64,000 bases of DNA, taken from positions 832,001 through 896,000 of the forward strand of contig CAVPNI010000003.1 in assembly GCA_963706715.1 (NCBI GenBank), read 5' to 3'. Both the position numbers and the translations under genes were made by a program. Shown in pieces: positions 12,113-13,182 of the stretch. The DNA comes from an uncultured Verrucomicrobiae bacterium. GTDB lineage: Bacteria; Verrucomicrobiota; Verrucomicrobiia; Chthoniobacterales; Xiphinematobacteraceae. Every line of letters begins with the position of its first letter. Position 1 is the first letter of the stretch. The notes under the pieces were generated by a model. That model searched no databases. It was not told where the DNA came from and saw only the letters and a program-made list of their open reading frames with translations.

Positions 12113-13182
12113 TTACAAATAATTATCTGAAAAAAGGGAAATTATGGAACATTGGAGACTTCTACGGCGAGCTATAGCTTGAGCCCATTTATGTTCAATA
12201 GGATTAAGATCCGGAGAGTAAGTAGGGAGATATTCCAGCGTACAACCAGCCTCTTTTATCAGAGCTTGTGTATCACTTCTCTTATGAAAGGTAGCATTAT
12301 CCATAACGATCACCGAATTTTTCGGTAGTTTTGGCAAAAGGTCTTCTTGCACCCAGTTATAGCAAAGCCCGTATAAAATGATTACGCCTTTGCCGCCCTT
12401 TTGACTCACTCAGCCCGCTGAGTCTCGCCCCTTCGGGGCTTGCCTTCGGCAAGTCTACCCCGGCCGTTCCCACGGCCAGGTGTTGCCTCCAAGCTTTGTT
12501 GCAAAAAATAGTCCGTATCTACAGATATGGCCTCTTTTTTGCGTCTTGCCTGGAGCCAAAATTTCAGTCAAATCCATGATCATTTTATACGGGCCTTGCT
12601 ATATGGAAAATGTCGCCATTTATGGAACTCGTAAAGAGGCCGGTCGTGAGTAAACAAGCTCCTACCAAAGCCCCAATGACATTAGTTCTAGTCTGCTTGT
12701 GCCAATCATGTTTTCCAAAAGAGCGTTTTCCTTTATCAGCATAGCCATATCTTCTGGGCATATCCTCGGCAAAGCCGCTTTCATCGATATAGACAATAGT
12801 TTTTCCACTTTCCCGATGTTCATTCATTTTTGTTTCAAAAGTTTTTCTGGCAAGATGGTCCGCCTTCGGATGGCGGAAGGATTTTTTTATAGGTGACTCC
12901 TAACTTTTTTAGGGCCCAATATATCCCATGTTTACTGACTCCAAACCGGACTGCCCGTTCTCTCTGATAGTCATCCGGATATTTTTCAACATCTTTTGCT
13001 AATGATTCCATGTCTATTTTCCGACTGTGCTTCTTTCTTTTTTGAATTGGGTTTATCTCTTTGGCCCAACTCATCAGTGTCGCTATTCCTATTTTGACTT
13101 GTTTTGCTAGCTCCCGATAGGTGAGATTTTCCTCTTTTTTAATCTTGATTACATGTTCTCGAAATCCTAATGGATAGGACAT
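12113..13182 (-). pseudogene. IS630 transposase (orfA/orfB with A7 slip site near 12882-12888), disrupted at 12360-12601
   Basis: Removing the MITE plus one TA restores the frame ...GDIFHNWVQEDLLPK... Confidence 0.9.
12360..12601. mobile_element. MITE type A, long form (242 bp)
   Basis: 22-bp TIR matching the host IS630, TA duplication, non-coding multi-hairpin interior. Confidence 0.92.

Follow-up and report, generated by a model that had tools for sequence, protein, structure and literature searches.

Related Small Repeats and the Locus

Several kinds of small repeats and mobile elements resemble the locus analyzed here, and their properties are summarized first. MITEs associated with IS630 elements form long hairpins and need no open reading frame, and ERIC MITEs influence mRNA stability (PMC2229807). 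Rickettsia palindromic elements (RPEs) lie in frame within genes and also occur in RNA genes (PMC2229807, PMC3733652). Hairpin-guided enzymes acting on single strands cut at dinucleotides, as TnpA-REP does at C|T (PMC8266576), or at tetranucleotides (PMC6006769). The tRNA-linked repeats (TLR/RtT; RF00391) date back to 1978, and in 2021 they still had no known function; their hallmark is an identity of 18–19 bp to the 3' end of the upstream RNA gene, and three rRNA-linked TLRs of E. coli undergo transcription and, in vitro, bind both Hfq and CsrA (PMC8144298).

The locus lies in a window, i.e., the whole stretch of DNA that was analyzed, of 64,000 nucleotides, for which a preliminary description had reported a structured core shared by three MITEs. 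This core is an optional module of 82–99 nt, nested within the MITEs as a second element, and is affiliated with a repeat family that is already known but unexplained. The module is very probably an independent mobile element in its own right; on balance, and with some reserve, the explanation favored here is a four-hairpin non-autonomous mobile element of about 80 nt that is related to the TLR core and would be moved as folded single-stranded DNA (ssDNA) in trans.

The Carrier MITE Family

Three filled MITEs are found in the window, namely A at 12358..12603, B at 21820..22081, and C at 58547..58803, and the terminal inverted repeat (TIR) frame TAGC-N8-TATAAAATGA given for them earlier was located at 12360, 21822, and 58549. 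MITE A consists of a TA-flanked, imperfectly palindromic backbone of 160 bp plus the module, and MITE B is the only copy with a B backbone that was seen with a module in its left arm. Once the module is removed, the three backbones are about 160 bp long and 0.70–0.79 identical over their whole length; A, B, and C, which had been taken for three families, are subfamilies of one IS630-type MITE, and the homologous core on differing TIRs was rightly recognized, although the homology extends to the whole 160-bp backbone and is not restricted to the core. The carrier is one ordinary IS630-type MITE family of the RUP/Correia kind. An empty MITE A (51072..51235; 160 bp between its TA flanks), from which the module is precisely absent and which has 0 differences to the nearest filled backbone, splits an empty MITE B (50985..51311) at the central TA of the latter.

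The genome of 3.04 Mb contains 113 short elements with the TIR frame (≤340 bp), 112 of which have TA on both sides, as well as five elements of 881–882 bp with A-type TIRs; among TIR pairs spaced 700–1000 bp apart in the genome, no full-length element with B- or C-type TIRs was found. In the one uninterrupted IS630 copy scanned elsewhere in the genome, both HTH_Tnp_IS630 and DDE_3 were identified, and the A-type IS630 element is the likely source of the MITE transposase. The window itself holds an IS630-family element of about 881 bp with A-type TIRs (12089..13217, minus strand; HTH_Tnp_IS630 at 12835-13197), into which MITE A is inserted. The interrupting MITE A has the same position and the same flanks in three IS630 copies (C1:217183-218313, C1:328984-330113, and the window copy at 12089-13217), indicating that the interrupted element was itself copied.

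The surroundings of these elements are rich in other repeats. A lone C-type TIR, with no partner TIR nearby, lies at window position 11825, which is 264 bp before the IS630 element and directly after a long repeated-module ORF (154-11829). Group II intron fragments (RF00029 and RF01999; 57733-58348, minus strand) lie roughly 200 bp away from MITE C, and an InsA zinc-ribbon ORF (57061-57468) is close by. Repeats with at least three copies make up about 430 kb of the genome; among them are many IS families, IS110, and ORFs for reverse transcriptases. Two congeneric genomes measure 0.9 Mb, and the pattern is that of an early stage of genome reduction.

Empty and Filled Copies of the Module

The MITE copies of 150–265 bp number 105, of which 46 are empty (25 A, 19 with other TIRs, and 2 C); the module occupies the left arm in 54 copies (21 A, 29 C, and 4 with other TIRs) and the right arm, inverted, in two, and five copies are unclassified, giving class counts that total 107 as the two right-arm copies were counted on top of the 105. 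Empty 160-bp copies exist in all three subfamilies with the module excluded precisely, and the overlap of empty and filled junctions consists of TT only, in B and C. One empty A copy (C1:379471) retains the left junction, which points to slippage. The proposal that the core is a functional cargo of the MITEs is not supported, given the 46 copies that lack it and its occurrence outside MITEs in many bacteria, while the recognition of a separate module was correct.

Independent sites in the genome comprise the left arm, the right arm (inverted), a third site represented by a diverged copy (C3:267742-267834; E = 0.05), and an intergenic position between ordinary genes (C1:613031), the last being the sole free copy among 88 model matches. 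The histories of module and backbone disagree: B and C have modules of 0.94 identity on backbones of 0.70 identity, whereas two B backbones that are 0.95 identical carry modules of only 0.68 identity, and these at different sites. Two empty C copies differ from filled copies at 1–2 positions and from one another at 3, a weak sign that they represent separate precise losses.

Some copies have been altered further. At C3:220741 and C2:258347, the first hairpin of the module is interrupted by ends resembling those of group II introns (a GTGTG start at one site and a domain V/VI-like end at the other), which suggests that the intron targets this hairpin. Two half-modules, in inverted order, make up each of three MITEs of 104–134 bp (C2:525023, C3:342132, and C1:165030), which points to former MITEs whose two arms both held a module.

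Fold and Covariation

The A-type module of 82 nt occupies 12402..12483 on the minus strand and matches a covariance model built from copies of the same genome at E = 2.5e-14; the core reported at 12404-12485 thus exists, with limits that were 2 nt off. Read along the minus strand, the module comprises NYACC, hairpin 1 with a GGGA loop, GTAG, ACT, hairpin 2, AG, hairpin 3, GCGAG, hairpin 4, and GAGTCA, and is flanked by one host A on either side. Modules of the B/C type are found on the plus strand at 21938..22036 (99 nt, with GAGGCA at the end) and 58667..58759 (93 nt). In general, the module strand starts with NYAYC and continues through hairpin 1 with its GGGA-type loop and a purine-rich link to a short closing helix, GXC with GX'C, which encloses hairpins 2, 3, and 4; the 3' end is RGTCA or AGGCA, and some copies end in C. 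The tetranucleotide region reads GGTAG in 23, GGGAG in 15, GGAAG in 7, and otherwise in 16 of the 61 parsed copies, and the length is divisible by three in 47 of 67 modules.

The four paired differences between the A and B/C cores that had been quoted earlier are all present in the sequence, and the change from GACT/AGTC to GCCT/AGGC is that of the closing helix. Over the 61 parsed copies, this helix is GCC/GGC (26), GAC/GTC (21), GAC/ATC (7), GTC/GAC (1), or mismatched (6). Its closing pair covaries, being AU in 49, CG in 27, another standard pair in 6, and unpaired in 6 of 88 copies, and AU in 56 and CG in 16 of the 72 copies of a second set. The maintenance of the fold by compensatory change likewise persists in these larger sets, both of which were fitted to the covariance model and are biased towards the structure: the 88 distinct copies have 91% of cells paired, two-sided changes in 22 of 25 pairs, and a covariation score of 0.509 versus at most 0.056 in slid controls, and the 72 distinct copies, drawn from five relatives, score 0.473 versus at most 0.080 in slid controls. 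For A-, C-, and D-type copies from the genome, z is −3.9 to −4.9 relative to dinucleotide shuffles, whether RNA or DNA is folded and on either strand, and none of the 200 shuffles folds as well; the free copy folds less strongly (z = −2.1 to −2.7, with 2–6 of 200 shuffles as good).

Hairpins of the C(GNA)G kind are extra stable in DNA. Among 49 parsed genome-derived copies, found independently of the exact pattern, GNA triloops close hairpin 2 in 21 of 30 cases and hairpin 3 in 29 of 34, the covariance models themselves preferring A at both ends and GAA loops. The C-GAA-G triloops of the preliminary description are a feature of A alone, the corresponding loop being TTT/AAA in B and C. The excess of G-T over A-C is mild (141 versus 97 cells in 182 sequences) and, in our judgment, smaller than expected for a structured RNA. 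Together, the GNA triloops and the mild G-T excess were counted for DNA over RNA, and of the RNA or ssDNA module initially suggested, the ssDNA half fits best.

Target Site and Insertions in Genes

True empty sites demonstrate that the module is inserted between two host A's (A|A) without duplication of the target. After 56 of 123 matches had been dropped as redundant or with unclear ends, 67 non-redundant clean sites remained, in which the base before A|A is G in 43, C in 18, A in 6, and T in none; the 59 genome-derived sites give G in 36, C in 15, A in 7, and T in 1. As the flanking A's are favored by the model, their identity rests on the empty-site cases, which are MITEs, an IS110 gene, an ORF6N gene, an RHS motif, heptamer arrays, and tRNA T-loops.

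Insertions in genes are exemplified by the IS110 transposase gene of a metagenome contig (L163), where three model matches are each placed on the sense strand at a Glu codon (GA|A) and removal of the modules regains the reading frame; one degenerate copy and one downstream copy accompany them, one of the modules is 80 nt long, and another has an in-frame stop. Two modules in an ORF6N gene (L160) both lie at Glu codons, and another lies in the FTGRE motif of an RHS gene (L126). Several in-gene copies carry stops or shift the frame, one in-gene site is probably antisense (L073), and other module-bearing IS110 copies are internally deleted. Translational bypass at in-gene modules was considered and rejected, as the take-off and landing codons do not match. 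In two diverged copies (L150 and L171), an ABC-transporter ATPase has a module within its Walker A motif; removal of the module does not restore the canonical lysine, and these loci look like old pseudogenes.

Most of the recognizable sites in genes and tRNAs have the module in sense orientation (every model match in L163, two in L160, the RHS site of L126, L189, and both tRNA T-loops), which also fits an RNA route, in which an intron-like element would be removed from transcripts by self- or enzyme-splicing and would spread by reverse splicing with a borrowed reverse transcriptase. This alternative, which is considered unlikely, can invoke the 80-nt module and the in-frame stop of L163, where read-through cannot rescue the gene, the GNRA-type nature of the GGGA loops in a fold that juxtaposes the module ends, and the many group II intron copies in the genome. 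However, searches with the intron and ribozyme models of Rfam gave no match to the module, the L073 site is probably antisense, the deleted IS110 copies look like dead passengers, and the lengths divisible by three suggest read-through or ancestry rather than splicing. Modules between genes occur in both orientations, and those between co-directional ORFs are in sense in only 12 of 18 cases (p = 0.24). Moreover, lagging-strand DNA insertion into co-directional genes is expected to give a sense bias as well.

Distribution and Search for a Mobilizer

A first covariance model, built from 13 copies, identified 38 of 81 genomes of the order as positive at E ≤ 0.05, the E-values being rough and several of these genomes being represented by a single weak match. 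A second model found 92, 62, 40, and 28 copies in four relatives and was positive in 4 of 91 genomes of a phylum sample, with two weak single matches only outside the order, in a search that used strict filters and was limited to 50 candidates in each genome. In two reduced genomes of the same genus, the module was not found. An exact-pattern search yielded 0 hits in viral contigs, 1 in genome contigs, and 1 in 301 phylum genomes; exact patterns are too strict, because the covariance model found many more copies. When one module was compared with the genomes and plasmids of E. coli by BLAST, nothing meaningful was returned.

Elsewhere, modules are often clustered or carried by other repeats. 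Most of the 35 copies in one relative (G355) sit on a handful of shared flanks, implying that they ride inside other repeats and were amplified with them. In four metagenome contigs (L176, L205, L156, and L192), 2–4 different modules share one strand over about 1 kb, and ACTGAT follows almost every one of them; the cluster marks a hot spot in a mobile region. At three further loci (L128, L129, and L137, in genomes G357, G033, and G365, respectively), pairs of different modules lie back to back about 38 bp apart, one in each arm of a palindromic host repeat, an arrangement similar to that of the double-filled MITEs of this genome.

Domain, neighbor, and association searches at the genome level found no mobilizer. 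Y1 transposases are absent from this genome and from four genomes of the same genus, as is TnpB, for which this genome has no zinc-ribbon match. Y1 was rejected as the mobilizer, since it is present in 28 of the 38 genomes with the module and in 36 of the 43 without it, with no association; among ten Y1 loci in four module-bearing genomes, a module lies within 1.5 kb at one, and that gene has different flanks of its own. The local IS110 was dismissed because its ends are unlike the module, and GIY-YIG proteins because they are UvrC-sized in four of five genomes, the exception being one small ORF in G365. This stand-alone GIY-YIG ORF (L313; G365:C1:403242-403442) has a frame of 114 aa, and the distance to a module is about 2.3 kb. 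Serine resolvases gave four matches. All-against-all clustering of ORFs around module loci, as a search for a recurrent neighbor protein, returned only host genes, IS110, and module-derived frames, and Pfam searches with 76 of 112 candidate ORFs from 27 module loci identified unrelated neighbors.

The lack of a candidate enzyme in the searches of this genome for Y1, TnpB, and GIY-YIG is what would be expected of a fossil, i.e., a module that was mobile in the past; in this genome, the MITE would have carried one or two old insertions to further sites, gene conversion would have exchanged them, and slippage of replication across the folded insert would have led to losses. The single free copy among 88 model matches, the frequent recombination evident from hybrid and internally deleted MITEs, the empty copy with a slippage-type junction, and the host-repeat amplification in G355 all agree with this account, which is nevertheless quite improbable: it leaves the origin of the family and the many independent sites elsewhere unexplained, and the two empty C copies are exact, with a 2-bp overlap, and each is nearer to filled copies than to the other. 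With regard to the nature of the module, the fossil account is compatible with the preferred explanation of an independent mobile element.

Relation to tRNA-Linked Repeats

Applied to E. coli K-12, the second model yields three weak matches (29.7–29.9 bits; genome-wide E = 0.007 at 29.9 bits) in repeats of 181 bp behind serX. Each repeat reproduces the end of the tRNA, interrupted at TTCGA|ATCC in the T-loop by an insert of 74 nt; the insert ends in GCGAGTCA, beyond which 18 nt match the tRNA 3' end exactly, and serX itself represents the empty site. A search for a phage match to the insert found none. Judging from this arrangement, the serX repeats are probably TLRs; serX is not named in PMC8144298. 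Behind a tRNA-Ser gene of a relative (G026), the same stretch scores 43.6 bits with RF00391 (cut-off 45) and 22.8 bits with the covariance model, and the module is at the same T-loop site as in the serX repeats. Searches with RF00391 gave 0 matches in this genome and in G355, and Rfam searches of the MITEs produced no match at the gathering level and only chance-level ones at E ≤ 5. The window modules appear, from sequence and fold, to be relatives of the TLR core, and E. coli holds a weak homolog of the module; as to whether the core belongs to a described repeat family, it is related to the tRNA-linked repeats of E. coli, and the window copies are without an Rfam match and outside the definition of that family.

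A functional structured RNA (a small RNA, or a processing or stability signal) under selection on the MITE or the host could account for the strong covariation and would be in line with the transcribed, Hfq- and CsrA-binding TLRs (PMC8144298) and the ERIC effects on mRNA stability (PMC2229807), but it is very improbable, given that 46 of 105 MITE copies lack the module and empty copies were amplified too, that modules interrupt genes and lie in both orientations between genes, and that it was not found in two reduced same-genus genomes. A host role could exist in some copies and be secondary; the structure is most simply maintained for the mobility of the module itself, rather than for the MITE or the host.

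Proposed Mechanism and Significance

If the module is an independent mobile element, it would probably move by an ssDNA mechanism. Hairpin 1 and the closing helix, in which GXC pairs with GX'C, would bring the module ends together, and a putative trans-acting enzyme would break and rejoin one strand at both ends and at the A|A target. The high copy number in this genome may be due to the IS630 transposase, which would have copied MITEs already carrying the module, and some of the empty MITEs may be later precise losses. Counted against the ssDNA reading are the lack of a mobilizer in the searches above and the lack of an evident lagging-strand bias in G355, where 12 of 35 copies are on the G-rich strand (p = 0.09), at sites that are not independent and are mostly carried by other repeats.

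A bolder proposal, which is speculative and rather doubtful, sees in the module a minimal class of elements (about 70–90 nt) that extends from Verrucomicrobiota to enterobacteria and enters and leaves (G/C)A|A sites precisely through a recombinase or an RNA-level chemistry new to science, possibly like an intron of protein genes, in view of the several copies at Glu codons of a single gene, which are all in sense; the TLRs would be its footprints. Should TLRs be the footprints of such a tiny element with precise insertion, attention would turn to the enzyme that moves it. The empty sites with their filled counterparts, the exact ends, and the naturally occurring compensatory variants available here define the substrate of an assay. 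Precise, scarless insertion chemistry targeted to a dinucleotide would interest specialists in mobile DNA. The module also illustrates a route to high copy number without an enzyme gene of its own, namely riding on MITEs, simple repeats, and dead IS110 copies. New from this locus are the pairs of empty and filled sites, the swapping of modules between backbones, the hitchhiking, and the multiple insertions at Glu codons within single genes.

Comparison with Known Systems

In the literature search, the module was nowhere described as a mobile element; Rudd 1999, papers on ERIC inserts, or supplements could already describe the insert. TRIP1 (PMC10888264) is a different repeat.

TLRs have in common with the module the third hairpin, the 3' end, the fold, and the GA|A site, on the basis of weak but consistent matches. 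In contrast to TLRs, the window copies reside in MITEs and not at tRNA or rRNA genes, as the positional definition of the family has it and as the homologs behind serX and in G026 are placed; they have no match to RF00391 at its gathering cut-off, and their hairpins 1 and 4, with GGGA loops, are longer. The descriptions of TLRs present them as repeats without a known function and not as a mobile insert.

Rickettsia palindromic elements, likened to the module by their description, are also hairpin repeats that occur in frame in genes and in RNA genes, and the module lengths here are often multiples of three. However, several in-gene modules carry stops or break the frame, unlike RPEs.

REP/REPIN sequences, which are linked to RAYT, and the ends of IS200/IS605 are likewise small hairpin DNA with no target duplication and a short target. 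A GTAG-like tetranucleotide precedes the hairpin in part of the module copies, as in REP, but is not conserved (GTAG or GTGG in 27 of 61), and the module differs from REP/REPIN by its four hairpins, closing helix, A|A target, and lack of association with Y1. With IS200/IS605, the module shares the absence of duplication and a short fixed target, one A being restored on each side in empty sites. The guide pairing rule of IS608 was used for comparison; it fits only if the element ends in TCAA, and the rule fails since empty sites assign the last A to the host. The guide-tetranucleotide rule thus does not hold for the module, whose only target signal is (G/C)A|A.

The carrier shares the TA target duplication, IS630 TIRs, and long hairpin of IS630-associated MITEs such as RUP, Correia/NEMIS, and ERIC. 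Structured inserts in ERIC were reportedly described in the 1990s–2000s, and nesting may therefore have a precedent. NEMIS, too, has long and short forms that differ by an internal 50 bp; compared with RUP, NEMIS, and ERIC, however, the optional part of the MITEs analyzed here is a second element with a target rule of its own and a wide distribution.
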